A stretch of DNA of 64,000 bases from a virus. Both the position numbers and the translations under genes were made by a program. The DNA lies in the IMG/VR virus record IMGVR_UViG_3300050821_010764, positions 64,001 through 128,000 of that record; one strand, given 5' to 3'. This document shows, piece after piece, positions 28,625-62,843 of the stretch. Position 1 is the first letter of the stretch. Each line of letters opens with the position of its first letter. The notes below the pieces were generated by a model, which made no database searches, had not been told where the DNA came from, and saw nothing but the letters and a program-made list of their open reading frames with translations.

Positions 28625-29341
28625 ATGTCTTTAAAACTATTGCAACCAGGCGTCCAACCACTAGGTCAATTTGACGGTTATGACTCCGATTTCTTGACTC
28701 TTAAGGGCGGTGAGATTGTTACACTCATTTCCGTTCCAGTGCCAGGCACTGATCACGCAGCTGCTGACTCTTTTGACGGATACGTCAACCCAGGTAGCGT
28801 GCAAAAACGTCCAGTTGTGACTCGTAACGTCGCAACCACCAAGCGTCCTTTGATGCTTTCTGATGATGGTATTACTGGCTACGGTACTCTATTCGGAGCC
28901 GTTGTTGGTGGAACTGTTGGTCAGCAAGTAAATGGACCAACCACCTTTACTGGTGCGCTTCTAGGACCTCACACTGCAACTGGTTCTGGCAAGGTAACTT
29001 GCTGGGAAAAGCCAGGTCTATATGCCGTCTCTCTTGATGCATGTGACACTGATGCAGTAACTGGTTTGCAACCAACCAACACCACTCTTGATGTTGGCGC
29101 TGCTTTGACCTTCGTTCCTGCTCTAGCCCTTGGTGGTCAATTGACTCCAGTGGGTAGCACCGCAGCCGCAGGTAACACTGTTGTTGTTGCTCGTCTAGTC
29201 GACTTCGAAACCAACGGATCTTTGGTAACCACTCCAAACAGACTAGTTGCCGCTCTAAACAGCCCATCTGGTTTGGTCAGCTCTGTCGGTCCTCGTCAGT
29301 TCGCCTTCGCAACCTTCTACTTCAACCCACCAGTTGCCTAA
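28625..29341 (+). CDS. Putative capsid decoration/stabilising protein
   Basis: Directly upstream of the MCP; beta-rich; TxGSGKVTxW. Confidence 0.65.
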   Translation: MSLKLLQPGVQPLGQFDGYDSDFLTLKGGEIVTLISVPVPGTDHAAADSFDGYVNPGSVQKRPVVTRNVATTKRPLMLSDDGITGYGTLFGAVVGGTVGQQVNGPTTFTGALLGPHTATGSGKVTCWEKPGLYAVSLDACDTDAVTGLQPTNTTLDVGAALTFVPALALGGQLTPVGSTAAAGNTVVVARLVDFETNGSLVTTPNRLVAALNSPSGLVSSVGPRQFAFATFYFNPPVA

Positions 29342-29454
29342 GTTAGTTGCTTAAATAATTCAAGCGTTTCGTGGATTAACTTTCACAAAACGCTCTATCA
29401 CACGCAAGTGTGTCGCTGGTAAGACTGGCAAATAATTCCACTAGGAGACGATTT

Positions 29455-30468
29455 ATGAATATGTTTAGCAACCAAGGCCAAATGAATGCCTCATCCCTTA
29501 AGGATGCACTACAAACTCTTGTTAAGTATGCAGCCGTTCTTGAAGAGAACACTCCATCTAACATGGGTCTTGCAGGACAAACTGCCCTAAGTGATGATAA
29601 GCGCGATGAATTGATTTCTCGCGCTATTATGACTCAAGATGGCAAGATTGCTCTAGCTCAGGCTATGGCAAACCCAATCCGTAGAAACTTGGATTACCAC
29701 GGTATCGCACGTCGTGCCTTGGTCGTTGACCCACTACCACAAGGTGCAATGCCAACTTACGATAGAGATATCGATGTTGCTGCTGTTGTTATCTCAAGCA
29801 ACGGTACTGGTCCAGAGTCCAGAGTATTCGGCGACAGAGTTGTCGTTCCAGAATTCGAAATCTATGCAAACCCAACGGTGAGAATCGCTGAAGTTAAGAG
29901 ACGTAGATTTAACGTAATTGACAGAGCAGTTCAGAAGGCTCGTCAAGAAATCATGGCTCAGGAAGATGCTAACATCTTCGCAGCTCTTGATGCAGCAGCT
30001 TCTGTTGAAAACGTCCTAACCGACATCGCAGATGCAGGTCTTCTAAAGAGAGACCTTGTCGAAATCAAGCAACAAATTGATCGTTGGGACTTAGTTACTA
30101 CTAAGTACTTCATGAACATCAATGAGTTCACTGATATCCTTAAGTGGGGTTCAGGTGGTGGACAAGGCGTAGGCGGCGGAGATTTCGATCCTGTCACTAT
30201 GAGAGAAGTTCTACAAACTGGTCTTTACGCCCACATCTGGGGTACTGACATCATGGTTTCCAAGATCGTTCCACCAGGAACCATCTACGGTGCCGCAGAC
30301 CCTGAGTTCGTTGGTGTTATGCCAATCAGACAGGACATTGAAGTGCTACCAGCAGACGAGCCAAAGCAATTGAAGCTTGGATGGGTAGTTTCCGAGATCA
30401 TCGGTATTGCTATCGTTAACCCACGTGGTTGCGCAGCAGGTCGTAAGTCTGTCGTAATCGGAGCCTAA
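29455..30468 (+). CDS. Major capsid protein (HK97 fold), 337 aa
   Basis: AGGAG RBS before ATG 29455; position, size and strong codon bias; RRALVVDPLP, PEFEIYANP and EIMAQED are capsid-like segments; strong terminator follows. Confidence 0.85.
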   Translation: MNMFSNQGQMNASSLKDALQTLVKYAAVLEENTPSNMGLAGQTALSDDKRDELISRAIMTQDGKIALAQAMANPIRRNLDYHGIARRALVVDPLPQGAMPTYDRDIDVAAVVISSNGTGPESRVFGDRVVVPEFEIYANPTVRIAEVKRRRFNVIDRAVQKARQEIMAQEDANIFAALDAAASVENVLTDIADAGLLKRDLVEIKQQIDRWDLVTTKYFMNINEFTDILKWGSGGGQGVGGGDFDPVTMREVLQTGLYAHIWGTDIMVSKIVPPGTIYGAADPEFVGVMPIRQDIEVLPADEPKQLKLGWVVSEIIGIAIVNPRGCAAGRKSVVIGA

Positions 30469-30491
30469 TAAGCCTGATTGAATAAAGTTCA

Positions 30492-30531: not shown

Positions 30532-31773
30532 CTACTGTCCTGCCGCGAAGTCCAGCAAGAAGCTCTTGTTATTGTTGTCCGGATTTCTCAGAATTTCCAA
30601 ATAACAAGCTTCCAAAATGGATTTAATTTGCGGTCCCGGCTTGATGCCGATAACCAGCAAATCGTCTCCATTTAATTGCATTTCGCGCTTGGCGAAGACA
30701 GTTTCGCTAACGTATTTGCCGAACTGCACCCTAGAGTTGATTTCCATAGCCTCAGTCAATCGTATAAATTGGTCAAAGGTATAGTCCCAGGGGTCAGGGG
30801 CATGGTTCTTAATGACCGCCATAAAGCTCTTATAAGCCAAAGGCGTGTCCTTCTTAAGGAATTCATTATACCTGTCCAAAAGGCTCAGTAAGAAAGTGAC
30901 TCTTTTGATTTCTTTATTAGGAAACTTTAAGAATAACAGTTCTGCCTGTACCTGTTCGACTGGGCACATGCCATACATAAATGCCAAGCGAGTTTCTAGT
31001 TCCTCTTGACATTTATCTAAGAAGGGCAAGAAGTGCATATAGACATCTCGGCTACAGAGGAATGGACAAGCCACTGCCAATGCACCCGATTGTTGAAGCA
31101 GTTGAATCCCATACGAAGGATCCTTCGTCATCAAGGTTTTGCACAACTCATCTTGAATACGTTCCTTGGAAACCTTCTTCAAGGTTTCAAGGCTGCTTTT
31201 CATTCCAGTAAAAGTAGGAGATTCCACCGCATAACCAAAACGAGCGGCGAATCGTGCAACTCGCATGATTCGGAGTCCGTCTTCTTGGAATCTAGTTTCT
31301 GGATTTCCAACTGCTCGAATAATTCCTTTGTGTAGGTCTTCTAATCCACCATAAGGATCGACTAAACGATCTGCAATAGGGTCGTAGGCGATAGCGTTGA
31401 TGGTCAAGTCTCGTCTTGCCAAGTCTTGTTCCACATTGAGCACAAAGAAGACTTCTTCTGGACGTCGTCCGTCCTTGTATTCTCCTTCGATGCGAAAGGT
31501 GGTAACTTCGAAATGATTTTCGACACCTGGACCCATCACTACCGTGACAGTTCCGTGCTGCAAACCCGTGGGAATGGTCTTAGGAAATAATCCAATGACT
31601 TCTTGCGGGCTAGCATCCGTGGTAATATCCCAATCCTTGGGGGTTTGACCAAGCAGTAAGTCGCGCACACACCCACCTACGATGAAGGCTTGGTAACCTT
31701 CCGCGCTCAGGACGCGGCACACCTCGAAAGCTTGAGGATTGACGTGTTGTTGCGAAATTTGTACGTTTAGCAT
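30532..31773 (-). CDS. cca: CCA-adding tRNA nucleotidyltransferase (class II)
   Basis: GGCVRD, DWDI, EVTTFR-EGEYKDGRRP flexible loop, RRDLTINA, EDGLRIMR, SKERI, and C-terminal NGDDLL..G..PGPQI. Confidence 0.9.
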   Translation of the reverse strand: MLNVQISQQHVNPQAFEVCRVLSAEGYQAFIVGGCVRDLLLGQTPKDWDITTDASPQEVIGLFPKTIPTGLQHGTVTVVMGPGVENHFEVTTFRIEGEYKDGRRPEEVFFVLNVEQDLARRDLTINAIAYDPIADRLVDPYGGLEDLHKGIIRAVGNPETRFQEDGLRIMRVARFAARFGYAVESPTFTGMKSSLETLKKVSKERIQDELCKTLMTKDPSYGIQLLQQSGALAVACPFLCSRDVYMHFLPFLDKCQEELETRLAFMYGMCPVEQVQAELLFLKFPNKEIKRVTFLLSLLDRYNEFLKKDTPLAYKSFMAVIKNHAPDPWDYTFDQFIRLTEAMEINSRVQFGKYVSETVFAKREMQLNGDDLLVIGIKPGPQIKSILEACYLEILRNPDNNNKSFLLDFAAGQ

Positions 31774-31780
31774 GTCACCG

Positions 31781-32587: not shown

Positions 32588-33349
32588 ATGAGTAGCGAGA
32601 GCAATTTTGCATATTCTTTAAAGTACAATACGCACTTTATCGTAAAAAACATTACGGGTTATACCGACGCCCAAATTCTTGCAGAAGAAAATTTGTTTAT
32701 TCCTTTTGAGGTTAGATCTACCCGTAAAGTAATCAATATTTTTCTTTATCCAATTAATCCTGGTGAAACCAGAGATTTATTACAGATTCCCGGAGTTCAA
32801 GAGGAAGACATTAGATCATCTCTTCTTAAGGGTGTACTTAGACACAAGTTTTTATGTGGTGATATTGCTCTAGTCTCTAGTAATATTGATCTTCTTCAGT
32901 TTAGCGATAAGCAACGTGCTTTCTTGCAAAAATTTGGATTTGGCGAAGGTGTTCAGATTGGCTGGGATGAATTGGATGGATACACTCAGGGACAGATCAA
33001 TTCTGGTGGTGACAATGATGATGGATACATCACCGAGAAACAACATAAGACATTAAGAGATCTTATTCATTTCGTTGATCAGGGTCCTGGTGATGGATTT
33101 GCTTCGGGTGCTTTCAAAGAAGATTTGCCGTTGGGCAGTCCCTTTCCAACCTCAATCATTTGGTATTTAGATGTAGGTAAGACTAAAAAATTAGTGGCCA
33201 AAACAATTACTTATGGTATCAATAAATTTCCTATTACTATTCAATGGGATATGTATGATTATGATGGTGTAACTTTGATTCATACGGTCACTGACCATAT
33301 TACTTATAGTACGGCTTTTGAAGCAACTAGAATAAGGACTATTAGCTAA
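32588..33349 (+). CDS. Putative virion structural protein
   Basis: 253 aa; two DGY motifs. Confidence 0.65.
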   Translation: MSSESNFAYSLKYNTHFIVKNITGYTDAQILAEENLFIPFEVRSTRKVINIFLYPINPGETRDLLQIPGVQEEDIRSSLLKGVLRHKFLCGDIALVSSNIDLLQFSDKQRAFLQKFGFGEGVQIGWDELDGYTQGQINSGGDNDDGYITEKQHKTLRDLIHFVDQGPGDGFASGAFKEDLPLGSPFPTSIIWYLDVGKTKKLVAKTITYGINKFPITIQWDMYDYDGVTLIHTVTDHITYSTAFEATRIRTIS

Positions 33350-33846
33350 TGTCAACCGATTCACCAGCGGCAATTTTATTTGATGAGCTTGGTAATCCAG
33401 TTGGGGTTATGCTGGATGGTTACGTTTATCGTTTGCAAGTTGAAACCATTATTACTGACACTTCGGGCAATGGTCCAGCCGCTGTCAAACCACCTAATAC
33501 TGCCGCAGTTGCTGCCGACCCGGCTCTAGTAGTAGCTTTTTCTCCCAATAACCCTATTACGGTATCTAGTGCTCGTCCGGCTACTTCTACCACTCATAGC
33601 GTGGTCGGCTCTGCCACCAACGTAGTTCTTTTAGCCTCTAATACTACTCGTTTAGGCGCAACCATCTATAATGATTCTTCTGCTTTATTGTATGTGAAGC
33701 TTGGTGCTACGGCTAGTACAACTGATTTTACTATTAAAATGTTTCCATTAGGTTATTATGAAATTCCGTATGGTTATACTGGTGAAATAGATGGAATTTG
33801 GTCATCAGCTCTTGGTCATGCAAGAATTGATGAACTTACTCCTTAA
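33349..33846 (+). CDS. Modular fibre/decoration-like protein 1
   Basis: Shares N-terminal, DPALVV and C-terminal (...ELTP) modules with downstream genes. Confidence 0.7.
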   Translation: MSTDSPAAILFDELGNPVGVMLDGYVYRLQVETIITDTSGNGPAAVKPPNTAAVAADPALVVAFSPNNPITVSSARPATSTTHSVVGSATNVVLLASNTTRLGATIYNDSSALLYVKLGATASTTDFTIKMFPLGYYEIPYGYTGEIDGIWSSALGHARIDELTP

Positions 33847-40868: not shown

Positions 40869-41777
40869 ATGACAGTTACAGCAGTTACCATTCCAACTCC
40901 ACCAAATAGCAATCTAGATCGTGCTATGTTCGTATGGATACCACAGGTGGGTGGAGCAAGTGATCCATTAAGTTCCGACACCAATATGCAGAATCTGCTA
41001 AACTGGTGTACTAACAACGGAATCAACGTACTTTTCTTGGATATCTGGGTTTACTTGGGTGGTGGAAATTTCTCTACTACACACGCACAAACTTTCCAGA
41101 AATTTATTCATTTTGCTCACGCTTCAGGCATTCGTGTTCTAGCACTTGGCGGAAATACTGATTGGGGACACAATCAACAATGGGTTATGGCAAATGTTGT
41201 TAAGAACATTGCCCAATATCAAGCTTACTGCGCAAATAACTCAACTAACACCGAGGGTGGTTTTGATGGTGTTATTCTAGATGCAGAATACTGGACCGTT
41301 AACGGTTACACCTCTACTGAACCAACGGGTATGTGTGATCTTATGAAGGCTATGCGTTCTGTTCTACAACTACCAGTTGGATTCGCTCCAACTCAGTGGT
41401 TGACTGACCCACTTAGTGCGGCATTGTCTTTCACTTATGACGGTTACACTGGTCTAGAGGGATATCATTTGATGAGACACGCAGATTTCTGTGTCATTCA
41501 AGCTTACTCTAACAGTGCTACCACTCAAACTAGCATGTTGCAAAACTGGTTTAACTACGCAAGCCAATCCGGATTCAATCTTGGATTGTACTGTGCCTCT
41601 TTGACTGATACCGGACAAGGAAGCGCTTCTTACTGGACTGGTTCTGCTGGCGCAAAAGCAACTATGGAGACCGCTCACACCACTATCTCTGGTAATTTTA
41701 CTGCTTCGCCTAATACTAATGCAAGTTTTAGAGGTCAAGCTATTGAACAGTATTCTTCTTACAAAAACATGACCTAA
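40869..41777 (+). CDS. Putative glycoside hydrolase-like TIM-barrel protein
   Basis: GINVLFLD, AHASGIRVLAL and GFDGVILDAE (resembling the GH18 DGxDxDxE motif). Confidence 0.55.
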   Translation: MTVTAVTIPTPPNSNLDRAMFVWIPQVGGASDPLSSDTNMQNLLNWCTNNGINVLFLDIWVYLGGGNFSTTHAQTFQKFIHFAHASGIRVLALGGNTDWGHNQQWVMANVVKNIAQYQAYCANNSTNTEGGFDGVILDAEYWTVNGYTSTEPTGMCDLMKAMRSVLQLPVGFAPTQWLTDPLSAALSFTYDGYTGLEGYHLMRHADFCVIQAYSNSATTQTSMLQNWFNYASQSGFNLGLYCASLTDTGQGSASYWTGSAGAKATMETAHTTISGNFTASPNTNASFRGQAIEQYSSYKNMT

Positions 41778-41887: not shown

Positions 41888-42748
41888 ATGCGAGCTTTGG
41901 TCTTGTCCGGTGGTGGCAGCAAAGGAGCTTATCAGGCAGGTGCACTCAAATATATTTTGGGTGAGCTGAGTGTTGCCTACGATGTCTTCTGTGGTGTCTC
42001 TGTAGGAGCCATTAATTGTTCTTTTCTATCTATGTTTCATAGTGGTCAAGAGGTTGAATCTGCTAATCTTCTTGCGGAGTTATGGTCTAAACTGGATAAT
42101 TCTAAAATTTACAAGCGTTGGTTTCCATTTGGACGCTGGCATGCTCTCTGGAATAAGAGTTTTTTCGATAGTTCACCATTACACACTATGCTGAAAGGCT
42201 ATTTAGACCTAGATAAAATTAGAGCAAGTGGTAAAAAAGTTAATGTAGGAACCGTTTCTTTAAGTTCAGGTAAGTATACCATCTTCGATCAGTCTTCTGA
42301 CCATTTTATTGAAGCAGTTATTGCTTCGGCATCCTTTCCTGGTATGCTGACACCGGTTAAATTTTTAGGACAGTTGTGGACTGATGGTGGAGTCAAGGAA
42401 ATATCGCCCATTAAAAAGGCAATGGAAATGGGAGCCGATGAAATCGACGTTATTATTACATCTCCTCAGACCAGGGTGAAACATTTCATCGAGAATCCGA
42501 CTACTGTAGATATTTTGAAGCGCTCTATTGACCTATCTACTGATAAAATCATGGCAAATGACATTGAGAAGATTCAAATGCACAATACTTTAGCGCAAGC
42601 AGGGCTGGCGGATTATAAGTACGTAAAACTTAACATTTTACGTCCAGATTACAATCTAATTGAGGATTTGCTAGATTTTAGACCGGAAAAAATCAAAGAG
42701 ATGATGGAAAAGGGCTATAAGGACGCTAAATACAAATACACAATGTAA
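41888..42748 (+). CDS. Patatin-like phospholipase
   Basis: GGGSKG, GVSVG nucleophile, ASASFP and DGG. Confidence 0.92.
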   Translation: MRALVLSGGGSKGAYQAGALKYILGELSVAYDVFCGVSVGAINCSFLSMFHSGQEVESANLLAELWSKLDNSKIYKRWFPFGRWHALWNKSFFDSSPLHTMLKGYLDLDKIRASGKKVNVGTVSLSSGKYTIFDQSSDHFIEAVIASASFPGMLTPVKFLGQLWTDGGVKEISPIKKAMEMGADEIDVIITSPQTRVKHFIENPTTVDILKRSIDLSTDKIMANDIEKIQMHNTLAQAGLADYKYVKLNILRPDYNLIEDLLDFRPEKIKEMMEKGYKDAKYKYTM

Positions 42749-49574: not shown

Positions 49575-51539
49575 ATGGTTTTCTACCCTAATCCATCTAA
49601 TGTCGGAACTAATCAAGTATCTTCGCTTGGTGACGGATACACTATTAATGTTACCTGGTTTCCAGCCGAACATTCTGCTCCGAAAAACAAGATAGCCTAT
49701 CAAATTTACTACTCTATCGTCAAAGAGACTGTCTTTGCCGAAGGACCTAAGCTTGTTTCCATTGATGGCGCCACTTCCGCCAATATCATCGATTTAACTC
49801 CAGGACAAGACTATTTTATTGCGGTTAGACCTGTAGAATACGATCCAACCATTTTTGATTTGACTTTGCTCCCCATTGCTCATGATAATCTAAGGTTTTA
49901 CCCACACAGCATCCTAAGACACGATATGACAGCTGCCGATTTGGTGGTGCCACTTCTAGATGTAGAAGGCTTCCCTGATGCTGGAGTAGTTAAAGTAGGT
50001 GTCGAACTCATTAGATATTTGGCTATTGATCATGTCAATAACAACCTTGTTGTTCCTGCCGGTGGCGGAGGTGCTCAACCAGTTCGATTAGTGGACCAAG
50101 GTGGTGGTAATTTCTTTACCGCCTCTCCTTCCAATGTTGGTCATGGCTCTGTTACTAATTTAACTGCCGTCTCTGGTTCTGGTGGTCCAACTGAAACTTG
50201 GACTATTAAATGTGTTTTCGTGCAAAGAGATATGTCCAACAACCCAATGCCGGGCACTGCTCAGTTTATTGCTATTGGCACCGTCTCTGGTCAAAAATTA
50301 GATGTACACGGTAATCCATTTGTCTGGACTGCCAATGGAATGGTCGTCTCTAACGGTATTTTAAGTTTTTCCATTACTGAAACGGCTCCGCCATTTAGAC
50401 CAGGTGATTTATTCACTATCAAAGTAGCTGGAGCAGTCGCAGGTGCTGCGAGCGGGCGCGGCTATAACAATTCTACTGCCACTCTTCATACAGTGGGCGG
50501 CTCCGATGGACTTAATACTTGGGATCCAACTGTGCCACTATTTACAGTCGGAGAAGACTCCCGTTGGGACCTAATCTATATTTGCCAATCACGTTTCGAG
50601 TATCCTCATTTTCCATTTACCATGGTGGATGGTTATCACCAGGTTGCCAAAGATTTGCTATCCACAGATTTATCCGCAGCTGATGCTGCTAACGTTACTT
50701 TCCCGGCATTCGACTTCGCAGGATATCATAGAACTGATCCAGTACAATTATTGAATGGTACTTGTGTAGGCAGCTACATTGGTGGAGAAATGGGTTGTAT
50801 TGATGGATATGGTAACGTACAAATTCTAAGAGGGTTTTCCTTACAAGATCAAAATACTCAGAGACAAGATGTCTTGCTATCGGTAACTGGTAAGCCAGCT
50901 GTTTTGATTAAGAGGGTGCAGACCGGAATTACTTGTAATTGTTATCTTCCATCTAGCGAGCATCCAGATGATAGATGTCCATTTTGCTATGGTACCAAAT
51001 TTGTTTTCGGTTACGAGCAATATTTTAATCCGCGCCGTTCTGATGGTAGAATTTTGGTTAGACCAGGACCAACCGAAGAAAGTTTAAAACGATATGAAGC
51101 CGGTATGGAGTCAGAGTTTCCATTGGACTTGTGGACACTAACTGTTCCCACTATCAAGATGAGAGATATCATTGTAATGTTTGACCAGGATGACAATGAA
51201 GAGTTTAGATATGAAGTGGCGGGTGTCATTAGAAACAATACCATCAATGGTCTAGATGGTGGTCAACATTTCAAGGTGATTAGAATTAGAAAGTTTGACC
51301 CAGCTTATCAAATCAGAATATTTAGAAATACTGCGGACTTCCCAAGCAAGCTGAATACTAGCATTGGATTCGTTCCTGGTATTCCTCCTCATACTCATGA
51401 GATCGTCATAAATGAGAAGATTATGTCGGTCAATCAAATAAATCAAACTACAGCGGTTTCACAGGGACATAATCATCCAATCGTCAATGGACAGGTTATG
51501 GAAGCGCTAGGGCATACCCACACTATCATCTTGCCGTAA
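49575..51539 (+). CDS. Multi-domain virion protein (FN3-like N-terminus, sheath-shared domain, neck/head-closure-like C-terminus)
   Basis: FN3-like DLTPGQDYFIAVR; CNC...CPFCYG; terminal HTH/HNH/HTH tripeptides; three DGY motifs. Confidence 0.6.
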   Translation: MVFYPNPSNVGTNQVSSLGDGYTINVTWFPAEHSAPKNKIAYQIYYSIVKETVFAEGPKLVSIDGATSANIIDLTPGQDYFIAVRPVEYDPTIFDLTLLPIAHDNLRFYPHSILRHDMTAADLVVPLLDVEGFPDAGVVKVGVELIRYLAIDHVNNNLVVPAGGGGAQPVRLVDQGGGNFFTASPSNVGHGSVTNLTAVSGSGGPTETWTIKCVFVQRDMSNNPMPGTAQFIAIGTVSGQKLDVHGNPFVWTANGMVVSNGILSFSITETAPPFRPGDLFTIKVAGAVAGAASGRGYNNSTATLHTVGGSDGLNTWDPTVPLFTVGEDSRWDLIYICQSRFEYPHFPFTMVDGYHQVAKDLLSTDLSAADAANVTFPAFDFAGYHRTDPVQLLNGTCVGSYIGGEMGCIDGYGNVQILRGFSLQDQNTQRQDVLLSVTGKPAVLIKRVQTGITCNCYLPSSEHPDDRCPFCYGTKFVFGYEQYFNPRRSDGRILVRPGPTEESLKRYEAGMESEFPLDLWTLTVPTIKMRDIIVMFDQDDNEEFRYEVAGVIRNNTINGLDGGQHFKVIRIRKFDPAYQIRIFRNTADFPSKLNTSIGFVPGIPPHTHEIVINEKIMSVNQINQTTAVSQGHNHPIVNGQVMEALGHTHTIILP

Positions 51540-52822: not shown

Positions 52823-53647
52823 ATGGGACTATCAAGGCTAAATAAAAAACTCTTCACTTCATCTGGAACTTGGCTCGCACCTGCTGGCATTACTCAAATC
52901 ACAGTATTTGGTATGGGTGCTGGTGGTGGTGGAGGAGGTGGAGGTGGCGGAGGCATTACTAATCCTGGAGGAGGAGGATCTGGTGGTGGTGGAGCTATTC
53001 ACAACGTACAAATTATCACCGTAGTTCCAGGCGTTTCATATGCCATTACTATTGGTGGAGGGGGTGCGTCTGGTAGTGGTGGTACTGGTGGAGGCAATGG
53101 TGGTAATGGTGGAGATGGTGGTGATACTACTTTTGATGGTCTTGCTACATTCTATGGTGCTGGAGGTGGATTTGGTGGTAGAGGAAATTTTGGTGGCAAC
53201 TCTTTCGTTGTAGGTGGGGCTCCCCGTCGTGGGTTATTTCCGGGTTCTGGTGATGGCGCTCCGAGTAATCCGGGTCAAGGTGGTTTTGGTATTACCAGAG
53301 GTTGGTCTGTTGCAAGGGTTGGAGCCCTTCTTCTTAATGGTGGGGCAACGGCTGCTGGTCCTGGTGGTGGTTCTGGTGGTCCAGGTTTTGATGGTACTGA
53401 TTTGGGTGGAGGTGGAGGAGGCGGTGGTGGAGCTAGTACTTGGAATGGAATGCAGGCAGGATTTGGAAATCCTGGTGGACCAGGTTTTCCAATCAATGGT
53501 GGTAGCGGTCAAGTTGGTCCCAGTTTAGGTGCGGGTGGTGGAGGTGGAGGCGGTGGCGGCGGCACCGATTCAGGTCAACCATTGCGTGGTGGTGCCTCAG
53601 GAACAGCTGGCGCTTCGGGCGCGTTAATAATTTTGTGGATAGAGTAA
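52823..53647 (+). CDS. Glycine-rich fibre-associated protein A
   Basis: FTSSGTW.AP.G.T N-terminus and poly-Gly tracts. Confidence 0.8.
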   Translation: MGLSRLNKKLFTSSGTWLAPAGITQITVFGMGAGGGGGGGGGGGITNPGGGGSGGGGAIHNVQIITVVPGVSYAITIGGGGASGSGGTGGGNGGNGGDGGDTTFDGLATFYGAGGGFGGRGNFGGNSFVVGGAPRRGLFPGSGDGAPSNPGQGGFGITRGWSVARVGALLLNGGATAAGPGGGSGGPGFDGTDLGGGGGGGGGASTWNGMQAGFGNPGGPGFPINGGSGQVGPSLGAGGGGGGGGGGTDSGQPLRGGASGTAGASGALIILWIE

Positions 53648-54469
53648 ATGAGTAGATTAAACACACAAACATTTCTTTCATCTGGAACTTGGACTGCACC
53701 TGCGGGTGTAACCCAAGTTACACTGTTTGGTATTGGTGGCGGCGGCGGTGGTGGTGGCGGAGGAAGTGGAGGAACAGGATCTCCTGGATTGCCTGGTACT
53801 GGTGGTGGTGGAGGTGGCGGAGCCATTCATAGAATACTCACAGTTAATGTTGTTCCAGGAACCGTATATACGATAACTATTGGCGCTGGCGGCGGAGGCG
53901 GGTCAGGTAGTGGAGGTGGCGCTAATGGTGCTCCTGGTGGAGATGCTGGTGATACTACCTTTGATGGTCTTGCTACATTTCGTGGAGCCCAAAGGGGTTC
54001 AGGAGGCGTTGCGGCTACAACTGGTACAACCACTTTTGGTCCTGCTGGACAGCCAGCTAAGTTGGTTTCTTTTGGTGTTGGTCTTGGAGCGCAAGAAAAT
54101 GTTGGTTCGGGTGGTGAAGGAGTTAGTAGAGGTGTAGCAGTTAGCACTTCAGTAGCTAGTGGTAGTGGAACTGCAAACAATGTTGGGGGCGGTGGCGCTT
54201 TTGCTGGTGGTGATGATCAAGCTTTAGGTGGTCAAGGTGGAGGTGGTGGCGGTGCTAGTACTTGGCCAGGCGGAAATGGTGGAACTGGTATTCCTGGAGG
54301 TCCAGGTTACGCTATTAATGGCGGTGGTGGATCTGCTGGACCAGGTATTGCTGGGGGTGGAGGAGGTGGTGGTGGCGGTGGTGGAACTGTTACTGGTCAG
54401 CCGCTACGTTCTGGCAGTAATGGACAAGCTGGTGGCAGTGGCGCATTAACAGTTACGTGGGTAGAATAA
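53648..54469 (+). CDS. Glycine-rich fibre-associated protein B
   Basis: Paralogue of A. Confidence 0.8.
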   Translation: MSRLNTQTFLSSGTWTAPAGVTQVTLFGIGGGGGGGGGGSGGTGSPGLPGTGGGGGGGAIHRILTVNVVPGTVYTITIGAGGGGGSGSGGGANGAPGGDAGDTTFDGLATFRGAQRGSGGVAATTGTTTFGPAGQPAKLVSFGVGLGAQENVGSGGEGVSRGVAVSTSVASGSGTANNVGGGGAFAGGDDQALGGQGGGGGGASTWPGGNGGTGIPGGPGYAINGGGGSAGPGIAGGGGGGGGGGGTVTGQPLRSGSNGQAGGSGALTVTWVE

Positions 54470-55332
54470 TGACTCTTAGTAAATTCAACAAACAACTATT
54501 TACTTCTTCTGGAACTTGGACAGCTCCTTCTGGAGTTACTGTTGTCATTTTACGTGGTATTGGAGGCGGTGGAGGTGGAGCTGGTGGAGGTGGAGGAGAT
54601 ATTAACGTAGCTGGAGAGGGTGGCGGAGGTGGAGGTGGTGCACGACAGAATACGGCAGTGTTAGACGTTATACCGGGAGTTGTTTATTCGGTTAATATTG
54701 GTATTGGTGGAACGGGCGGTTTAGGGGGAGGAACTGGTTCAGTTAGTGCTCCTGGTGGCAATTCTACAGATGGACAGGACACTACCTTTGCAGATCCTAC
54801 TCCGACCACATTAGCAACATTTCGTGGAGCTAGTGCGACATTTGGCGGAGTCAATGCTAATGAAGGAACTATTTCGGCAGTAGGCGGACCGCCAGTAAAA
54901 GGATTATGGCCTTCTGGTTCTACCACTGGTGGTTCAGGTGGTCATCCACATAATACAGGTCAAGGTGGAGATGGTATTGGTAGAGGTAATGCTGGTGTAG
55001 ATTTTCTTCGTTTAGATGGCGCCTCTACTGAAGCTGGCACGGCAGGCGGTCGTGGAGCTTTAGGGACTAACGGTGGTAGAAATGGTGGAGGCTCTGGCGG
55101 AGGTGGTGGTGCGAGCACTTGGGAAGGTGGAACGGCAGGAGCTGGTGGAAATGGAACTCCCGGATTCGGAGCTTCTGGTACTGGTCCATTTACTGGTGGT
55201 GCAGGTACATTAGGTGGTGGCGGAGGTGGGGGCGGTGGTGGCGGTGGAACTATCAATGGACAACCATTGCGTGCAGGACAAGCCGGTGGTAATGGCGGAA
55301 ATGGTGCTTTAGAAATTAGTTGGGTTGAATAA
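54469..55332 (+). CDS. Glycine-rich fibre-associated protein C
   Basis: Paralogue of A and B; TAATG coupling gives the start at 54469. Confidence 0.8.
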   Translation: MTLSKFNKQLFTSSGTWTAPSGVTVVILRGIGGGGGGAGGGGGDINVAGEGGGGGGGARQNTAVLDVIPGVVYSVNIGIGGTGGLGGGTGSVSAPGGNSTDGQDTTFADPTPTTLATFRGASATFGGVNANEGTISAVGGPPVKGLWPSGSTTGGSGGHPHNTGQGGDGIGRGNAGVDFLRLDGASTEAGTAGGRGALGTNGGRNGGGSGGGGGASTWEGGTAGAGGNGTPGFGASGTGPFTGGAGTLGGGGGGGGGGGGTINGQPLRAGQAGGNGGNGALEISWVE

Positions 55333-55873: not shown

Positions 55874-58800
55874 ATGAGCAAATTCCCTTCAGACTTTGAT
55901 GATGACACAACCCTGCCGTTTATAAACGACAATTTGAATGACATTGGTGGAGAAGCCATCAATGCTCTTCGTGATGTCGCATTTGCGCTTGAGCAAAATA
56001 TTGGTTTAGGAGCTGCCGGTACCACTAATTCTATCGCCGATAGACTAGGTGTTTCTATCAATCCTAACGGCACCATCAAAGCCTCTGCTATTGCCAGCTT
56101 AGGACTAGTTACCCTACCTATTCGTCAAGATCAGATTGCTGATGATGCTGAAATCCCAGAATCTAAATTAAGATTAGACCACAGAACCCAAGACCTGTTT
56201 AACTACATCAGAGATTTATCTGGAGACGTTAATCTAGCTTTGGGGTGGATCTCTGTCAGTGGAGTTAAACTAGAACCACATCTGATTGGTGCTATTTATC
56301 GACACACCATGGATCAAATTGATGTGACCGGTGATCCAATTGGTTTTCCTTTCCTAAAAAATAAGTTTAGACAGTTTAGAAATAATCTACAATCTTATAA
56401 TCTAGTTAATGATATCAATAATGAGTTACTAGCTCATCAATGGGCAGATGGTTCTAATTTTACCACTGGAACCGTTGTCACTAACAATGGTTCTTTATTT
56501 TCTGCCAATTACGGACATACCGCTAGTGGTATCTTCCTAAATACCACTAGATTTGTTAATATCCCTCAAATTGCTGACGATTTACAATTGTTTGCTGAGT
56601 TTATTGACGAGTCCAGCATTCTATTGTTGGGCACCAGAATTCAAAATCTATACTCTAATGGTATTTCTAGAGTTTCTAGATCTTCTAGTTTAAGCATCGA
56701 TGGCTATGGACAGTCCATTATTCCAATGACCCCTGCCATTGCTTACTTGAAGAATATTGGATCTAACAGCACTCCATTCGATGATATCGATAGGGGCGAC
56801 GACATTATCGAATTCAAACCATTGGCAGCCGCCAAAACCTCTAAATCTTTTGATGAGCAATTCGCGTTGGTTAAAGTTGGCGATATCATTAGAATCAACT
56901 ATGGCACCATTGAGACCTCTTTTATCATTAAAGAGAAAAAATATATTGCTGCCTCTCAGAAATATCTAGTTAGAATTGCCGGTAAAAACCTATTCTATTC
57001 TCCTATTGCTGTTGCCCGTATTGACCGTCCGCTAGTCAATAACAATAAGTTTGGTGTACTGGCTATTGCTCCTGCCAACAACCAGTTCAATCAGATACCA
57101 AGTCTGGTTGTGGGTAGCCCTCGTGGTGCTCAGGCACTAGGAGTTGGATTTAGCTCTGATGAGTTTAATGAAACTCATTATCTATTGTATCTAGCTTTGT
57201 ATCCAACTGGATCACCTCAAGATGGATATACTATTCTGCCTGGTATCGATGTCACTGGTAACAGAGGACAAACTCCAGGAGCTTATACTCTTGATTCCAT
57301 TGTAGATGCAACCAACGCAGCCCTTAGAAAACCAGGGTTTAATTACCGCTTCATTGCCTTCTCTTATCAAGGCGAGTTTGGTATCATGTTGGCAGATCCT
57401 TACAGTGATACGGCATTCTCAGTGCTCAGTGCGGTGGTTAAACCAGATGGAACTTTTGATGCAGTAGCCACTGGCATAGTATTTCAGAATAATGTTGTAG
57501 ACTTATTTCCAGTCCCACCACATACCGTCGCACCTGACCCTCTTGGATTTGGTCCTTTTGGCGCTAATATTGCCAGCCCTCCATTCATGCTTTCTTATGG
57601 CTCCACAGAAGCCTCTCAGAACCCGACCAGACTATTTGTTCCACTAAAAAGAAACAACTACTATGTCAACGGCGCTGAGAAGGAAAGACTTAATCTACAG
57701 CCAGGACAAGCTTTGGATGGCTATGGTGATGGTTACTGGGTAGGTACTATTCAAGTGCCACTTCCTGTTACAGGCGGTAGAGTAGAAAAAGTTTATCGTG
57801 TAGCTCAAGATCTATCTACTTCTGATTTGAAAATTGGTAAGACACTAGTTGTTCAGTCTTTGGGAGCTGGTAGTCTGTTAGATTTTGGTCGCTTCATCAT
57901 CAAAGATATCAATTTTGGATGTAACCCCGCCAACTTCACTGATATTACGGTGTACGATGCTGTTCATGCACAAGGATTTTCACCAACACCGACTTTAGGA
58001 TCAGACGGTAATCCCGCCAATGTTGCGCTGTATTTTAACTCTGATTCTGTTTCCTTTAATGCAGAAACGGCGACCGATTTCGTAGCTGTATCTCCGTTTA
58101 AGAGACATTTTGAAGTATATATTGATCAATTCAGTAATACCTTTACTCATGAAAGAGGTAGAATGGGTATTAGCGGTAGCAATATCGTTATTGATACTCC
58201 TACTCCAGTAACTCTATATGGTTCTACCCAACCAGCCAAGCTAGACATTATTAAAATTTCTCCAAAGTTAAGAGGATATCAGTTCGGTCCAGTCACTAAG
58301 ATCAATCTCAATATTATTGCTTTTGATTCTGCCAGCGGAATCTACGACGGATACTTATCCTCTTTCGATGGCAGCTTCCATACACACCTTGGTCCGACAA
58401 TCAACGGCAAAAAAGGTGAGGTCACTAGATTCTACGATGAGACTAATATTGATTACATTGATGTGTTGTTTGACATCACCACCATCGTTGGTTCTTTTGC
58501 TTTACAGAACATAGACATTCAACTATTTCCAACTTTGTCGTTGGATGATGAGGTTATGTTAATCGGAACCTGTCAGCTAAACGACACTACTAAATTTGTC
58601 AATCGTGTACGAGATGAAAGACAGTTTGGAAACACTAGTGAAAAAGAACTTAGCACTTCTGCTTTGAATTTCATCGCACTACCAGAAAGACTACTACACT
58701 TCAACGGAGTTATCAGAGGATTTGATATTGTTGATGTAAATGCCGAGGTTATTACATTAACCGGTGGGCAGGCTCTTGTCAATGGTAAATTCCAACTTCT

Positions 58801-61800
58801 CAATAATGAAATTCTCACCATTCCATTTACTAGAGAGTTGTATTTCTCAGTAGACTTCCCAATCAATTGGGCATTGTGTATTAATTCTATTGGTGAATTA
58901 GTCACTATTCCATTAACAGATTTTGATTCTGTTTTGGGCACTCCTAATGATCCTACTAGGCTAGTAGTTCTAAAAAATGTTATTTCTAATACTACCTATA
59001 CGGTGGATTCAACTACATTTGCCAATCTTCTAAATAATAGAAAAGATTTGACCATACTGTATATTGTAGCTTCGACTGTCTCTATGACGCCAACGGTCTC
59101 ACTATCTGTTAAAGATGTAAGAAGATATGTAAATGATCAAGACTCCAATATCCCGGCAGTAGTTACCGATGACAACTCACAGGGTAACTTTAAAAACTTT
59201 GTATCGGCTGCGACATGGATCAAACTAGATAACAAATTTCAAAATACCATTCAAATTAAGGGAAGTCAATTTGCAACTGTAGATCCCGGTTTCTCAGCCG
59301 GTAATAGTGTCAATATCGTAGGTGGTGGAGTTGGAGCCATACTTACTTTTAATACTAATGTAGTGATGTTTAATGTGAATTTCAAAGATTTAGAAATTCA
59401 TTTTCTTGGAAACACGACTCTAACTAATGTTAATTTTGATAACTGTGTAGTTTACAATGGTGGACCATCTCATAATTTCACGGCTACTAACTGTATTCTA
59501 AACAGATGTACTATTACAGTTGATGGAACCGCAACTCTTACTAATGTGTTAATCAATAAATCTACTGCAACTTTCGAGAGCACTATTATTGCAAATACCA
59601 CCAGATTTACTGATAGCATATTAACCTTCCTAATTGGTGGAACTTTTACTAATGTAATCATCGATCCATCTACGATAACGATTGGTGGAACGATTACCAT
59701 CAATTCTTCTGCTACTATTACCGATTCGACTATCCTAGTTACTACCGTCCAAGCTTTTGTAATAAGCAATCTTTTCAGATTTGAAAGAAATCAAGTTACC
59801 TATACGGGAGCCCCAGGTGGAGGATATGACACCACCGATCTAGTTAATGCAGGTGGAGGCATGATTTATGCCAGTGTAGGAGCCAACTTATCAGATGTTA
59901 TTGTCAGAGATAATACATTCACTACGGCTCTGACCGATAGATTCTCCTTTTTCAGTTTGCAACTAACTAGCTTCTCTTCTGTTATTGAAAATATTGATGT
60001 TTCCAAAAACAAGTTTATTTCTACAGCTATGGTAGATGATTTGAGAGCAGTTATCTCAATTGTATCTACTCTGACTGCACCAGCTAGTCCGGGCGCCTAT
60101 CCAAGATCTCCTAAATTAGTCAATGTATTTATTGATGGTAATATGTGCAACGCTAATCAGATGATTGTTGTATCTGTCCAGCGTACTCCGGGCGTGGTTG
60201 CTATCACTGGAGGCATGTTAACTACTACCAGTACAAAGATTTCTAATAACACCTGTGGTACCATTGGATTTATCACGGCAGCAGCTTCCGCTTCCGATTT
60301 CTCTAACGTTACCTCTCCAAATATTGGATTGATACAAGATAAATCAGATCAATTAGTCATCAGTGGTAATGCTTGCAAGTTTATTGCTAATCTTGATTTT
60401 AGAGGCGATTATATTCCATTCAGAAGTACAGCATATCCAGGAAACAATATTGACTTTGTTGCAACTGGTACCGGCGCTTTCAGCATCTACAATAACACTG
60501 TCAATTGGATTCAAGTTGGTTGCAGCGCTTATACTGTGCTAAATGACGGTGGCATCATCACTAGCAATAGAGTGTCTCCCGCTAATCCTGCCTATTTAAA
60601 CAACTTTACCGACGCATTAGTTAGCGGTGTTACACCGGGCAATGTAGGCATTTTGTTAAGAAGAGAATTTAACGGTACTGGCACTACTCGTAGCATTATT
60701 GCCAATAACATAATTGTTCAGAAGAATCTATTTAATACTGTTGGTACCGCCGTTAGCTATTATTATGATGCGGCTTTGGTCTGTTTCAACAGTGCCAATA
60801 TTACTGGCAACTCTATCATTGGCGTAGTCAACACCCTAACTAACCCACTATCTCCGTTCTCTACTATATTGTATTTGGGACCATCAGGTAATATGATTGT
60901 TTCAGGTAATAATTTGGATAGAGCTGGTTTAGGAATTCAATCTTATGTAGCTACAGCGCCTGGTGCGGTCAACCAAGTCTCTGTTACGAATAACATTTTC
61001 GATAGCCAATTTATTGATGTAGCTAATACTATCGAAACGGTGGGGGTTAATATTCCTTCTGCATGGTCATTCCGCAATAATAGAAATCAGATTTTCTATA
61101 AAGAAATATCTTTGGTAGATGACTCTTTTGGTTTAGATGGTCTTTTTGGGGCAGGAGTACAAAACAACTCTTATCCAGCACATACTCAGCTAACTCTTTT
61201 TGCCGACCAAAGAACTGGTGCTGACGGTTTTATTACTGTTTTTAGACAAATTGGTCCGGCTAGCTATACAGAAATAGCTTCTGATCATTTTATTCAAGTA
61301 CAAGATTTCGGTCAAGGCGCAAGCCATACATTTGGCTGGACTAAGCGTGGGGCAATTGATCCTTACTTGCCAGATAATGTTAGAATTTTGAACGCTAGAA
61401 TTGGATATTTTGAAAGTACTTGGAATAGCGTTAATGCTTTGGATTACAATGCCGCCCCTGCTTATAACGTTGCTACTTTAACTATGTTCAGGTACAAAGA
61501 TTCGACAACTTCAAATGATCCTCTCAATGGAGTATTGAATGTTAGAGACCAAATAACGGCTCATGCAGGAAGTTTTGGAAATGATAATTCTGTTTTTGAT
61601 AACGTAGCCGCCTCTCATCATATTACATCTGCTGGTGATGAAACCAATATTAGAACAAATACCGTTATTATCACTGCCGATTTAACTGCTCATGATTTTA
61701 CTACCAATCAAAATTACAGAATAGGTTATTCGTTAGAACAAAACTTTAAAAAAGCAGCTCCCACAGATGGCAACTTCGTCTTTTTTGATTGGTCTCCAAT

Positions 61801-61825
61801 TGTTTTGAAGTGCATTTATCGTTAA
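55874..61825 (+). CDS. Very large virion structural protein (baseplate/fibre-like) with a C-terminal parallel beta-helix-like region
   Basis: 1983 aa; repeated I-x-x-N / N-x-I patterns in the C-terminal ~800 aa; five DGY motifs. Confidence 0.7.
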   Translation: MSKFPSDFDDDTTLPFINDNLNDIGGEAINALRDVAFALEQNIGLGAAGTTNSIADRLGVSINPNGTIKASAIASLGLVTLPIRQDQIADDAEIPESKLRLDHRTQDLFNYIRDLSGDVNLALGWISVSGVKLEPHLIGAIYRHTMDQIDVTGDPIGFPFLKNKFRQFRNNLQSYNLVNDINNELLAHQWADGSNFTTGTVVTNNGSLFSANYGHTASGIFLNTTRFVNIPQIADDLQLFAEFIDESSILLLGTRIQNLYSNGISRVSRSSSLSIDGYGQSIIPMTPAIAYLKNIGSNSTPFDDIDRGDDIIEFKPLAAAKTSKSFDEQFALVKVGDIIRINYGTIETSFIIKEKKYIAASQKYLVRIAGKNLFYSPIAVARIDRPLVNNNKFGVLAIAPANNQFNQIPSLVVGSPRGAQALGVGFSSDEFNETHYLLYLALYPTGSPQDGYTILPGIDVTGNRGQTPGAYTLDSIVDATNAALRKPGFNYRFIAFSYQGEFGIMLADPYSDTAFSVLSAVVKPDGTFDAVATGIVFQNNVVDLFPVPPHTVAPDPLGFGPFGANIASPPFMLSYGSTEASQNPTRLFVPLKRNNYYVNGAEKERLNLQPGQALDGYGDGYWVGTIQVPLPVTGGRVEKVYRVAQDLSTSDLKIGKTLVVQSLGAGSLLDFGRFIIKDINFGCNPANFTDITVYDAVHAQGFSPTPTLGSDGNPANVALYFNSDSVSFNAETATDFVAVSPFKRHFEVYIDQFSNTFTHERGRMGISGSNIVIDTPTPVTLYGSTQPAKLDIIKISPKLRGYQFGPVTKINLNIIAFDSASGIYDGYLSSFDGSFHTHLGPTINGKKGEVTRFYDETNIDYIDVLFDITTIVGSFALQNIDIQLFPTLSLDDEVMLIGTCQLNDTTKFVNRVRDERQFGNTSEKELSTSALNFIALPERLLHFNGVIRGFDIVDVNAEVITLTGGQALVNGKFQLLNNEILTIPFTRELYFSVDFPINWALCINSIGELVTIPLTDFDSVLGTPNDPTRLVVLKNVISNTTYTVDSTTFANLLNNRKDLTILYIVASTVSMTPTVSLSVKDVRRYVNDQDSNIPAVVTDDNSQGNFKNFVSAATWIKLDNKFQNTIQIKGSQFATVDPGFSAGNSVNIVGGGVGAILTFNTNVVMFNVNFKDLEIHFLGNTTLTNVNFDNCVVYNGGPSHNFTATNCILNRCTITVDGTATLTNVLINKSTATFESTIIANTTRFTDSILTFLIGGTFTNVIIDPSTITIGGTITINSSATITDSTILVTTVQAFVISNLFRFERNQVTYTGAPGGGYDTTDLVNAGGGMIYASVGANLSDVIVRDNTFTTALTDRFSFFSLQLTSFSSVIENIDVSKNKFISTAMVDDLRAVISIVSTLTAPASPGAYPRSPKLVNVFIDGNMCNANQMIVVSVQRTPGVVAITGGMLTTTSTKISNNTCGTIGFITAAASASDFSNVTSPNIGLIQDKSDQLVISGNACKFIANLDFRGDYIPFRSTAYPGNNIDFVATGTGAFSIYNNTVNWIQVGCSAYTVLNDGGIITSNRVSPANPAYLNNFTDALVSGVTPGNVGILLRREFNGTGTTRSIIANNIIVQKNLFNTVGTAVSYYYDAALVCFNSANITGNSIIGVVNTLTNPLSPFSTILYLGPSGNMIVSGNNLDRAGLGIQSYVATAPGAVNQVSVTNNIFDSQFIDVANTIETVGVNIPSAWSFRNNRNQIFYKEISLVDDSFGLDGLFGAGVQNNSYPAHTQLTLFADQRTGADGFITVFRQIGPASYTEIASDHFIQVQDFGQGASHTFGWTKRGAIDPYLPDNVRILNARIGYFESTWNSVNALDYNAAPAYNVATLTMFRYKDSTTSNDPLNGVLNVRDQITAHAGSFGNDNSVFDNVAASHHITSAGDETNIRTNTVIITADLTAHDFTTNQNYRIGYSLEQNFKKAAPTDGNFVFFDWSPIVLKCIYR

Positions 61826-61833
61826 AGGAAAAA

Positions 61834-62019
61834 ATGAGCTTAGATGACAAATTCTTACTAATAAATCAAAAGTGTTCATGTATTGATCAGCCGCCTCGAT
61901 TAATTGATGGCTATGCTATAGTTAGAGAGCGCTGTTTACAATGTCATGGTAGGGGAGTTAAAACCTCTGAAATTTCATTGGCTGAATTAAAGGCTTGGTT
62001 AGATGGGTATTCTGGATAA
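61834..62019 (+). CDS. Small Cys-rich protein (CSC...CLQCHGRG)
   Basis: AAGGA RBS; TAATG coupling to the next gene; two DGY motifs. Confidence 0.6.
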   Translation: MSLDDKFLLINQKCSCIDQPPRLIDGYAIVRERCLQCHGRGVKTSEISLAELKAWLDGYSG

Positions 62020-62843
62020 TGTCAACCAATAATTTTTTCAAATCTAATTTGATGAATCTACATCACGTTGTTCAGGCGTCGATGTTGGTCTATCCTAAAG
62101 AAATGATTATCTCGGTTCTCAGAGATTTCTTTTCTAAGGACGACTATTATCATTACTCTAAAGATCAATGGGGATTTGCTAATACTACTGATCATACCGA
62201 TTTGCCACCTGGCGCCGACATCCCCGAAGGCGCTATTGGCTCCACAGCTACTTCTAGCATTTTACTGCCCACCAGAGTATTTATCGGAGAGAACTATCGA
62301 TACGATGGAATTTATTATCCTGCCATCTTGGTCAAAAGTGGCGGGGCTCGTTACGTCCCAATTTCCATTAATAGAGAGCAAGAAGGAATTCAATACGAAG
62401 ACTTAATCTTTGAAGATGGCTATGGTAACCAAACTATTGTTCATAAACCAGTTTCTTTTATTACTGCTGGCATATGGGAAGGATCAATTATTGTTGATGT
62501 TTTAACTAGAAGTCTAAGAGCTAGAGACGACTTAGTAGAAGCAATGGGTATGTTCTTTGCGGACATTACTTTTGATACTCTTCATGATGTGGGCATTATA
62601 GTCAAACCGCCTGTTATTGGGGCTGCTTCAGAGGCAGATGATAGAAATGACAAGCTATTTAGGCAAACTCTCACATTAGATATAAGAACTGAGTGGAGAA
62701 GGGAAGTGCCCGTAAGCAACGTCATTGACGCTATCTTCTTCACCGCAACTTTTGAAGATTTATCTAGACCTAGCAGCCCCGTTCCCGCTAATATGACTGT
62801 TAATACCGAAGTTAGCTTGACGGATATGCTACTAAACATGTAA
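62019..62843 (+). CDS. Putative tail completion/terminator protein
   Basis: Directly upstream of the sheath; YPAILV, IVDVLTRS..RDDL, LDIRTEW pattern. Confidence 0.55.
   Translation: MSTNNFFKSNLMNLHHVVQASMLVYPKEMIISVLRDFFSKDDYYHYSKDQWGFANTTDHTDLPPGADIPEGAIGSTATSSILLPTRVFIGENYRYDGIYYPAILVKSGGARYVPISINREQEGIQYEDLIFEDGYGNQTIVHKPVSFITAGIWEGSIIVDVLTRSLRARDDLVEAMGMFFADITFDTLHDVGIIVKPPVIGAASEADDRNDKLFRQTLTLDIRTEWRREVPVSNVIDAIFFTATFEDLSRPSSPVPANMTVNTEVSLTDMLLNM

Follow-up and report, generated by a model that had tools for sequence, protein, structure and literature searches.

The stretch of DNA analysed here (the window, 64,000 nucleotides in length) corresponds to bases 64,001–128,000 of a linear 144.8-kb virus contig (IMG/VR record IMGVR_UViG_3300050821_010764) that was rated 34% complete. 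The contig is a fragment of a megaphage with a genome of roughly 450 kb, and its close relatives in IMG/VR are contigs of 430–450 kb, one of which has terminal repeats. From 28.6 kb onward, the window encodes a series of proteins in which the tripeptide Asp-Gly-Tyr (DGY) recurs, and it is the distribution and possible function of this motif that are described below. The genes concerned, with the nucleotide position of each Asp codon and protein lengths in amino acids (aa), are as follows.

28625–29341, plus strand: 238-aa glycine-rich protein, directly upstream of the major capsid protein gene; DGY at 28673 and 28775
32588–33349, plus strand: 253-aa protein in a fibre-like gene array, no Pfam or PHROG family; DGY at 32975 and 33020, 15 residues apart
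33349–33846, plus strand: 165-aa protein; DGY at 33415
40869–41777, plus strand: 302-aa protein; DGY at 41439
43106–43462, plus strand: 118-aa Ig-like protein; tandem DGYRADGY (43172, 43187)
46863–47762, plus strand: 299-aa protein with an Ig-like N-domain and a helical C-domain, highly conserved (82–91% identity); DGY at 47193 and 47319
49575–51539, plus strand: 654-aa neck- or fibre-like protein with an N-terminal FN3 domain; DGY at 49632 (in the FN3 A-B turn), 50628 and 50802
55874–61825, plus strand: 1983-aa giant virion protein; DGY at 56699, 57221, 57716/57728 (tandem DGYGDGY) and 58346
61834–62019 (alternative start 61789), plus strand: 61-aa open reading frame (ORF) with a CxC...CxxC pattern; DGY at 61906 and 62002
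62019–62843, plus strand: protein of about 274 aa, the ORF being called from 61995 and the conserved Met being residue 9; DGY at 62415
62985–64000, running past the window end, plus strand: start of a 941-aa protein; one DGY beyond the window

Nearly all of the DGY proteins lack sequence relatives in Pfam, PHROG or the PDB: Pfam and PHROG scans of the ten proteins returned nothing useful, and profile searches of the PDB with three alignments (A1–A3) gave no matches. Tblastn searches with the 654-aa and 299-aa proteins found no cultured relatives, and public metagenomes contain 1,174 clusters (90% identity) of homologues of the 299-aa protein, some of them on contigs of up to 490 kb. The 238-aa protein corresponds in position to gp26, the capsid decoration gene of Bacillus phage G, and its 223-aa orthologue in G001, a complete relative of the window's phage, also carries two DGY. 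The 941-aa protein is probably the tail sheath, as judged by synteny with the sheath of G001, whose neighbour matches tail-sheath PHROGs. Within the C-terminal third of the 654-aa protein, an invariant CxC...CPxC pattern is accompanied by repeated HxH motifs (PPHTHE, GHNHP, GHTH) that are like the metal sites of T4-type fibre tips. The 61-aa ORF, which the initial annotation had singled out for its two copies of the motif, has both of them in frame; it has no homologue in any related locus, and its status as a gene is uncertain.

The initial annotation of the window, made from the sequence and its list of ORFs, had counted 21 DGY tripeptides in ten proteins, found none upstream of 28.6 kb and put the chance expectation at about 2. 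All of this was borne out. The codon pattern GAY-GGN-TAY is present in frame on the plus strand at 21/21 of the listed Asp codons, across ten called ORFs, and elsewhere in the window it occurs only once on the plus strand (62819, out of frame) and once on the minus strand. For the 36 proteins encoded from 28.6 kb on (11,426 residues), both composition and 5000 per-protein shuffles gave 1.5 expected DGY against the 21 observed (shuffle maximum 8; Poisson p = 2e-17). DGY was the top-ranked tripeptide of this downstream set, ahead of GGG, which comes from three glycine-rich proteins. Post hoc choice of the motif does not explain the signal, because the next tripeptide that is not of low complexity reached only p of about 1e-4. 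The 9,195 residues encoded upstream contain 0 DGY versus 1.24 expected, which is not significant alone. The contrast was sharper when the residue following Asp-Gly was considered: this is Tyr in 21/89 cases downstream versus 0/37 upstream (Fisher p = 4e-4) and 3/123 in the rest of the 145-kb contig, i.e. 24% downstream versus 2.4% elsewhere. In the downstream set, Asp precedes 44% of Gly-Tyr dipeptides, and the central residue of Asp-x-Tyr is Gly in 66% of cases.

The level at which the motif is selected was addressed through codons and strands. Asp, Gly and Tyr codon frequencies inside DGY equal the background, in keeping with the earlier remark that its codons vary and that the peptide, not the DNA, is the object of selection. 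All sites in the window lie on the plus strand, as a DNA-level signal might require; in G001, however, one fibre gene on the minus strand carries 7 copies. A DNA-level motif was ruled out by the reading frame (21/22 pattern matches in the coding frame), by codon use and by the minus-strand gene. Selection on the peptide rather than on the DNA is thus strongly supported.

The signal is also restricted to one exact tripeptide. In a pooled set made up of the window plus 13 loci, 203 DGY were counted versus 15.3 expected (13-fold), whereas near variants stayed close to expectation (DGF 1.1-fold, DGW 0.8-fold, NGY 0.7-fold, EGY 0.9-fold, SGY 0.8-fold) and only DSY (2-fold) and YDG (3-fold) showed a mild rise. 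No wider sequence context was seen around DGY, except for Gly at position +1 in 28% of sites (DGYG[NQD]).

We then considered whether common descent could account for the recurrence. An Ig-like domain is common to two of the ten proteins: hhalign (95%, E = 2e-8) identifies the 118-aa family as homologous to the N-domain of the 299-aa protein, which corrects the initial description of the ten as apparently unrelated; even here, the DGY of the two families lie in different loops. When three DGY families were compared by hhalign, nothing aligned beyond the word DGYGN itself. Hidden paralogy, or a repeated domain, was rejected on these grounds: the profiles align only the motif, and the DGY of the Ig domains are not homologous. 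Taken together with the p value after per-protein shuffling, the coding frame and codon use of the sites, the minus-strand gene in G001 and an excess that holds over a G+C range of 25–44%, these data make it extremely improbable that the enrichment reflects chance, paralogy or a signal in the DNA.

Alignments of orthologues showed how the sites behave over time. Some DGY columns are invariant over a background of 50–60% identity, with excess conservation peaking exactly at D, G and Y, while many others are lineage-specific gains, some of them within insertions. The DGY at 47193 in the 299-aa protein is present in 11/11 close orthologues and that at 62415 in the protein of about 274 aa in 9/10; in the 1983-aa protein some columns are kept in 10–12 of 12 orthologues and many are gains of single lineages; and in orthologues of the 118-aa protein DGY occupies 6 different columns. 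Farther out, homologues of the 299-aa protein with identities as low as 34% carry DGY in 22/34 cases, spread over 11 columns. The pattern was clearest for a distal baseplate protein of roughly 1200 aa, whose 56 distinct orthologues each carry 1–12 DGY (mean 5.4 versus 0.24 expected), distributed over 35 alignment columns of which none is universal. Some columns are thus near-invariant across homologues, but none is universal in the distal baseplate family and sites turn over. Copies also cluster, with 153 DGY pairs lying within 10 residues of one another (e.g. DGYDGY, DGYxDGY) versus 38.6 ± 5.7 under random placement, an excess of about 4-fold. DGY thus acts like a recognition site or short linear motif, not like an inherited domain signature.

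The excess was found in every relative tested, at 14–22 times chance overall. Each of 15 loci around the 654-aa protein contains 7–24 DGY versus 0.4–1.5 expected; a relative with 31% G+C has 12 versus 0.8; and a more distant lineage has 17 versus 0.8, though DGY is missing from its version of the 299-aa protein. One relative's contig was binned in a metagenome-assembled genome (MAG) labelled Chitinophagales, which gives a weak hint of a Bacteroidota host. In a crude test, the DGY codon pattern was not in excess in this bin (261 versus 316 in the control), the host assignment itself being uncertain, and a host-wide DGY motif was rejected on that count. On the contig from this MAG, the expected site of the homologue of the 1983-aa protein (L022:15925–20879) is a region of about 5 kb without a long ORF under genetic code 11, which could be due to stop-codon recoding or to an interrupted gene.

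Within the virion, DGY is confined to outward-facing proteins. Within the window, no copy lies in the terminase, portal, protease, internal head proteins or major capsid protein (MCP), the main landmarks being the following.

6732–8639: large terminase, head module
8716–10599: portal, head module
16096–19662: prohead protease fusion, head module
29410–30468, plus strand: MCP (phrog_2522, E = 1e-77), marking the head-side border of the DGY region; 0 DGY

In G001, DGY is found in the protein at the decoration position, small Ig-like proteins, the 299-aa protein, a neck-like protein, a 1785-aa giant and its neighbour, a Baseplate_J-like wedge protein, giants of 2376 and 1245 aa, and collagen/DUF5907 tail fibres, among them the product of the minus-strand gene. 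No copy occurs there in the C-terminal part of the sheath, in the tube-like protein, in the tape measure or in about 6,000 residues encoded nearby. The G001 sheath is encoded as a 462-aa C-terminal piece (327.9–337.4 kb; L017:1–8400) near endonuclease VII/HNH-like genes, which suggests that the sheath genes are split by homing endonucleases or introns. A gene for a patatin-like phospholipase (41888–42748, plus strand; E = 2e-29) lies within the fibre/neck block of the window and is kept in five relatives; its product may be a virion-borne lipase.

To place the motif on protein structures, as the initial annotation had proposed with the expectation of surface turns, models of two proteins were used. 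In the AlphaFold model of the 299-aa protein (predicted local distance difference test score, pLDDT, 82), the invariant DGY at residues 111–113 lies in a flexible interdomain linker of low confidence, and that at residues 153–155 lies at the tip of a beta-hairpin; Foldseek searches with this model matched generic Ig/filamin domains only. The AF2 model of the 654-aa protein has a mean pLDDT of 43 and is confident only over residues 1–110, the FN3 domain, in which DGY forms the turn joining the first two strands. The three modelled sites, the only ones available, are thus two turns and one linker, and the models indicate a location on surface turns or linkers for 3/3. In the distal baseplate protein of roughly 1200 aa, 28/35 DGY columns lie near indels versus a background of 60%.

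This placement is also what would be expected if DGY needed no reader and served as a structural device, with Asp-Gly forming a type I' hairpin turn and the following Tyr locking the hairpin; Asp-Gly would then stand in place of Asn-Gly, which deamidates in long-lived particles, and the motif would reflect a preference of this clade for beta-sandwich and fibre folds. The modelled sites in hairpin turns and flanks that resemble beta strands fit this explanation, as does the way in which enrichment tracks beta-rich outer proteins, given that helical head proteins would hold few hairpins. On the other hand, such a device should tolerate Phe, with flanks that co-vary, whereas DGF stands at 1.1-fold against 13-fold for DGY, and the isosteric Asn is not interchangeable with Asp (NGY 0.7-fold). 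In the tandem forms DGYDGY and DGYxDGY, the two copies cannot each form a two-residue hairpin; one conserved site is in the low-confidence interdomain linker, sites turn over while their number is kept, and the beta-rich tail-tube-like protein and the sheath part lack DGY. We regard a purely structural role, including the proposed replacement of Asn-Gly, as rather unlikely, while giving it serious weight.

If the motif is recognised by a further component, which is probably the case, the genes alongside it become of interest. The initial annotation had drawn attention to three enzymes encoded in the window, without claiming a link.

14400–15173, plus strand: 257-aa protein tyrosine phosphatase (PTP)-like protein with VHCQAGKDRTG, a Cys-based Tyr/dual-specificity phosphatase signature (HCxxGxxRT)
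30532–31773, minus strand: CCA-adding tRNA nucleotidyltransferase with PolyA_pol head, RNA-binding and tRNA_NucTran2_2 domains, flanked by the capsid gene and the fibre array
47755–48950, minus strand: Methyltransf_24 methyltransferase (47755–48336) beside a 2H phosphoesterase with an Acb1-like match, amid the structural region

None of these makes a convincing modifier. The phosphatase-like gene lies in the head module and is a poor candidate, the nucleotidyltransferase is a CCA-adding tRNA enzyme and also a poor one, and the methyltransferase is missing from all 15 related loci. These observations bear on the possibility that DGY is the target of a modification other than glycosylation, arising autocatalytically or made by some enzyme of the phage or the host, such as Tyr phosphorylation, sulfation, nucleotidylation or oxidation with cross-linking, or Asp-Gly succinimide/isoaspartate chemistry. 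Such a modification would share all of the evidence for a reader, would account for the strict need for both Asp and Tyr, and might be connected with the PTP-like signature in the head module. Nevertheless, no kinase, sulfotransferase or oxidase is linked to DGY, the methyltransferase is not conserved, the nucleotidyltransferase has another evident role, and the bacterial bin that contains a relative shows no excess of the DGY codon pattern. Modifications of this kind appear quite improbable.

A better candidate reader emerged from gene order in the relatives. There, the DGY-rich baseplate giants are followed by a GT-B (GT4-like) glycosyltransferase, about 375 aa long, in which an EX7E motif is invariant. 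The GT4-like gene lies directly after the DGY-rich baseplate genes in 7/7 relatives examined (43–70% identity) and is usually followed by a GT2 gene; some genomes have a second GT2 and an NAD-dependent sugar epimerase/dehydratase, and in G001 another GT2 adjoins the fibre gene with 7 DGY. When the GT4-like glycosyltransferase was used as bait to collect 65 full loci (G+C 25–44%), the 10 kb upstream of its gene contained 771 DGY versus 45.3 expected, and the 10 kb downstream contained 20 versus 27.8. An outgroup search from P0135 recovered one more lineage, which has both DGY and GT4; a search from P0143 found nothing. On this sequence evidence, the GT4/GT2 block is a better candidate for the reader than the three enzymes encoded in the window. 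Glycosyltransferases that co-occur with DGY, which the initial annotation had suggested looking for, stand beside the DGY genes in relatives but are missing from the window's own contig, which stops short of the block. In G001 alone, a gene for a 259-aa protein of the FGE-sulfatase/C-type-lectin fold (L018:15207–15986) lies between the last baseplate giant and the glycosyltransferases; this protein could be a receptor-binding tip or the target of a diversity-generating retroelement.

Comparison with Bacillus phage G (Donellivirus gee), the only cultivated megaphage (PMC12484599), provided a contrast. Phage G is the closest cultured relative by MCP (54% identity between the window MCP and gp27); it is also alike in that a decoration gene precedes its capsid gene and in its genome size, about 0.5 Mb. 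It differs in having no GT4 orthologue: the GT-B profile gave no match in phage G, though it did find the distant copy in the relative G007, and only sub-threshold GT1/GT2 matches were seen elsewhere in the phage G genome. Its head module contains 0 DGY versus 0.56 expected and its tail-baseplate module (gp174–195) 3 versus 2.0, and both counts agree with a link between the glycosyltransferase and DGY. The DGY excess in phage G is limited to the giant proteins gp420–431 (1000–2010 aa; JN638751.1, 316.8–347.7 kb), with 14 versus 2.24 expected.

Several observations weigh against reading DGY as a substrate of this glycosyltransferase. The 6-fold excess in gp420–431 exists without a GT4 orthologue and does not agree with it. 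T4 structural proteins contain 5 DGY versus 1.76 expected (2.8-fold), and a modest excess may be common in large beta-rich virion proteins; these milder excesses in phages without the GT4 gene favour the hairpin explanation. The glycosyltransferase block is seen in relatives only, one of which (G002) lacks the GT2 partner. As evidence, the link between GT4 and DGY is phylogenetically weak, consisting of conserved synteny in one clade and a single outgroup contrast. DNA and host surface glycans are frequent substrates of phage glycosyltransferases. A literature search found no Tyr-directed or DGY-directed glycosyltransferase, and we know of none that has been described. Anything attached to the motif, the residue that carries it and the enzyme responsible are all inferred. 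This clade stands apart in how large and how specific its excess is, in the turnover of the sites and in their extension over the entire outer surface.

A reader need not be an enzyme, and DGY could instead be a non-covalent docking or ligand site for an accessory protein, a metal ion or a host-surface glycan; in the last two forms, the whole outer surface would gain a weak multivalent adhesion. Among possible accessory proteins are the products of three tandem genes (52823–55332, plus strand; 273–291 aa, 35–40% glycine), which lie in a region of strong local GC skew (0.28) and may encode fibrous or 'hair' proteins. Asp and Tyr form a typical sugar-binding or Fe/Ca-binding pair, and the restriction to the outer surface, the tandem multivalent copies and the metal-type HxH motifs of the 654-aa protein would all suit a ligand site. 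However, no partner is conserved clade-wide (the three glycine-rich proteins have almost no detectable orthologues in related loci), and three residues are small for protein–protein docking. Both the docking of an accessory protein and the adhesion of the surface to glycans or metal ions therefore seem distinctly unlikely.

Taken together, these results suggest that some reader probably recognises DGY, and that the clade's own glycosyltransferases are most plausibly that reader. The initial idea of a recognition or docking code on outer-virion proteins is strongly supported, the motif being clade-wide, specific to D, G and Y, gained convergently, repeated in tandem and located on turns or linkers; the three enzymes first pointed to are poor candidates. 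We propose that DGY would act as a short linear motif on surface turns and linkers of outward-facing proteins, displayed by the protein at the capsid-decoration position, by the proteins of the neck/collar and fibre array, by the wedge and distal giants of the baseplate, and by the tail fibres. A reader acting in trans would contact the Asp carboxylate and the Tyr hydroxyl. This reader would be the clade-conserved, presumably retaining GT-B enzyme (GT4-like, EX7E) encoded after the baseplate genes, which would add a sugar, probably to Tyr, for the neighbouring GT2 enzymes to extend. The resulting glycan coat on exposed parts of the virion might shield the particle or tune its adsorption, as in glycosylated mycobacteriophage and chlorovirus virions. 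That DGY is a glycosylation sequon read by the conserved GT-B enzyme is held tentatively, at somewhat under an even chance. The fuller version, in which DGY is the acceptor code of an undescribed cytoplasmic system of megaphages whose GT-B enzyme glycosylates Tyr (or Asp) on folded proteins and so coats the particle, is possible but doubtful.

The phages concerned, a clade with genomes of about 450 kb that carries the DGY code, are very abundant. If DGY is a modification sequon, it would belong to a new enzyme–substrate system, possibly useful for site-specific tagging of proteins in the cytoplasm, and it would show how giant phages dress their particles and allow virion-exposed proteins of megaphages to be predicted from sequence among those of unknown function. 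If it is indeed a GT-B acceptor code, no earlier case of a sequon-type code on a phage virion would exist, and the enzyme would have a new specificity. Were it purely structural, it would still be an unusually strong clade-specific rule of protein construction.

To our knowledge, a strict three-residue code that marks only outward-facing phage proteins has no counterpart in phage biology, and a full-text literature search found no report of a DGY motif in phages. Known sequons are similarly short: N-X-S/T, D/E-X-N-X-S/T (Campylobacter PglB) and the Bacteroidota O-glycosylation motif D-(S/T)-(A/I/L/V/M/T). DGY resembles them in being a short code (with Asp in the bacterial versions), in its location in exposed loops, and in the gain and loss of sites while their number is kept. 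It differs in that these systems are extracytoplasmic, use lipid-linked donors and modify Asn, Ser or Thr, none of which is present in DGY. Assembly of phage particles takes place in the cytoplasm, so the modifier would have to be a soluble transferase with Tyr (or Asp) as its target.

With the Asp-Gly/Asn-Gly type I' hairpin turns of proteins in general, DGY shares the two-residue turns between strands seen at modelled sites, the third being in a linker. It goes beyond a turn preference in the exclusion of NGY and DGF, in its tandems, in its restriction to one phage clade and in an excess of 14–22-fold, compared to 2.8-fold in T4. Capsid glycosylation in chlorovirus PBCV-1, by cytoplasmic glycosyltransferases that the virus itself encodes, is alike in relying on a soluble viral GT-B enzyme and on acceptor sites that are atypical and peculiar to the virus, as proposed here for DGY. 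The GT4-like protein has a weak sequence match to PDB 3oy2 (glycosyltransferase B736L of chlorovirus NY-2A, E = 3e-4), a similarity at the family level only; chloroviruses are eukaryotic viruses with N-linked glycans on the major capsid protein. Against cultured phages, the GT4 query gave matches of only 22–25% identity, in Streptomyces and Microcystis phages.

Among phages, the 'moraphages', a different and smaller lineage with a Bacteroidota host, have core glycosyltransferases (PMC12619734). Mycobacteriophage virions, which are reported to be glycosylated by glycosyltransferases of the phages themselves (Freeman et al. 2023, cited in PMC12619734), offer a parallel in outcome. In that work, as summarised there, the glycans are on the C-termini of capsid and tail-tube subunits, whereas here the MCP and the tube-like protein have no DGY. 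The present case further differs in that a strict internal tripeptide extends over more than ten protein families. As in the summarised account of mycobacteriophages, the relatives keep their glycosyltransferase genes within or beside the structural operon, and a glycan coat on exposed virion proteins is likewise the outcome proposed.

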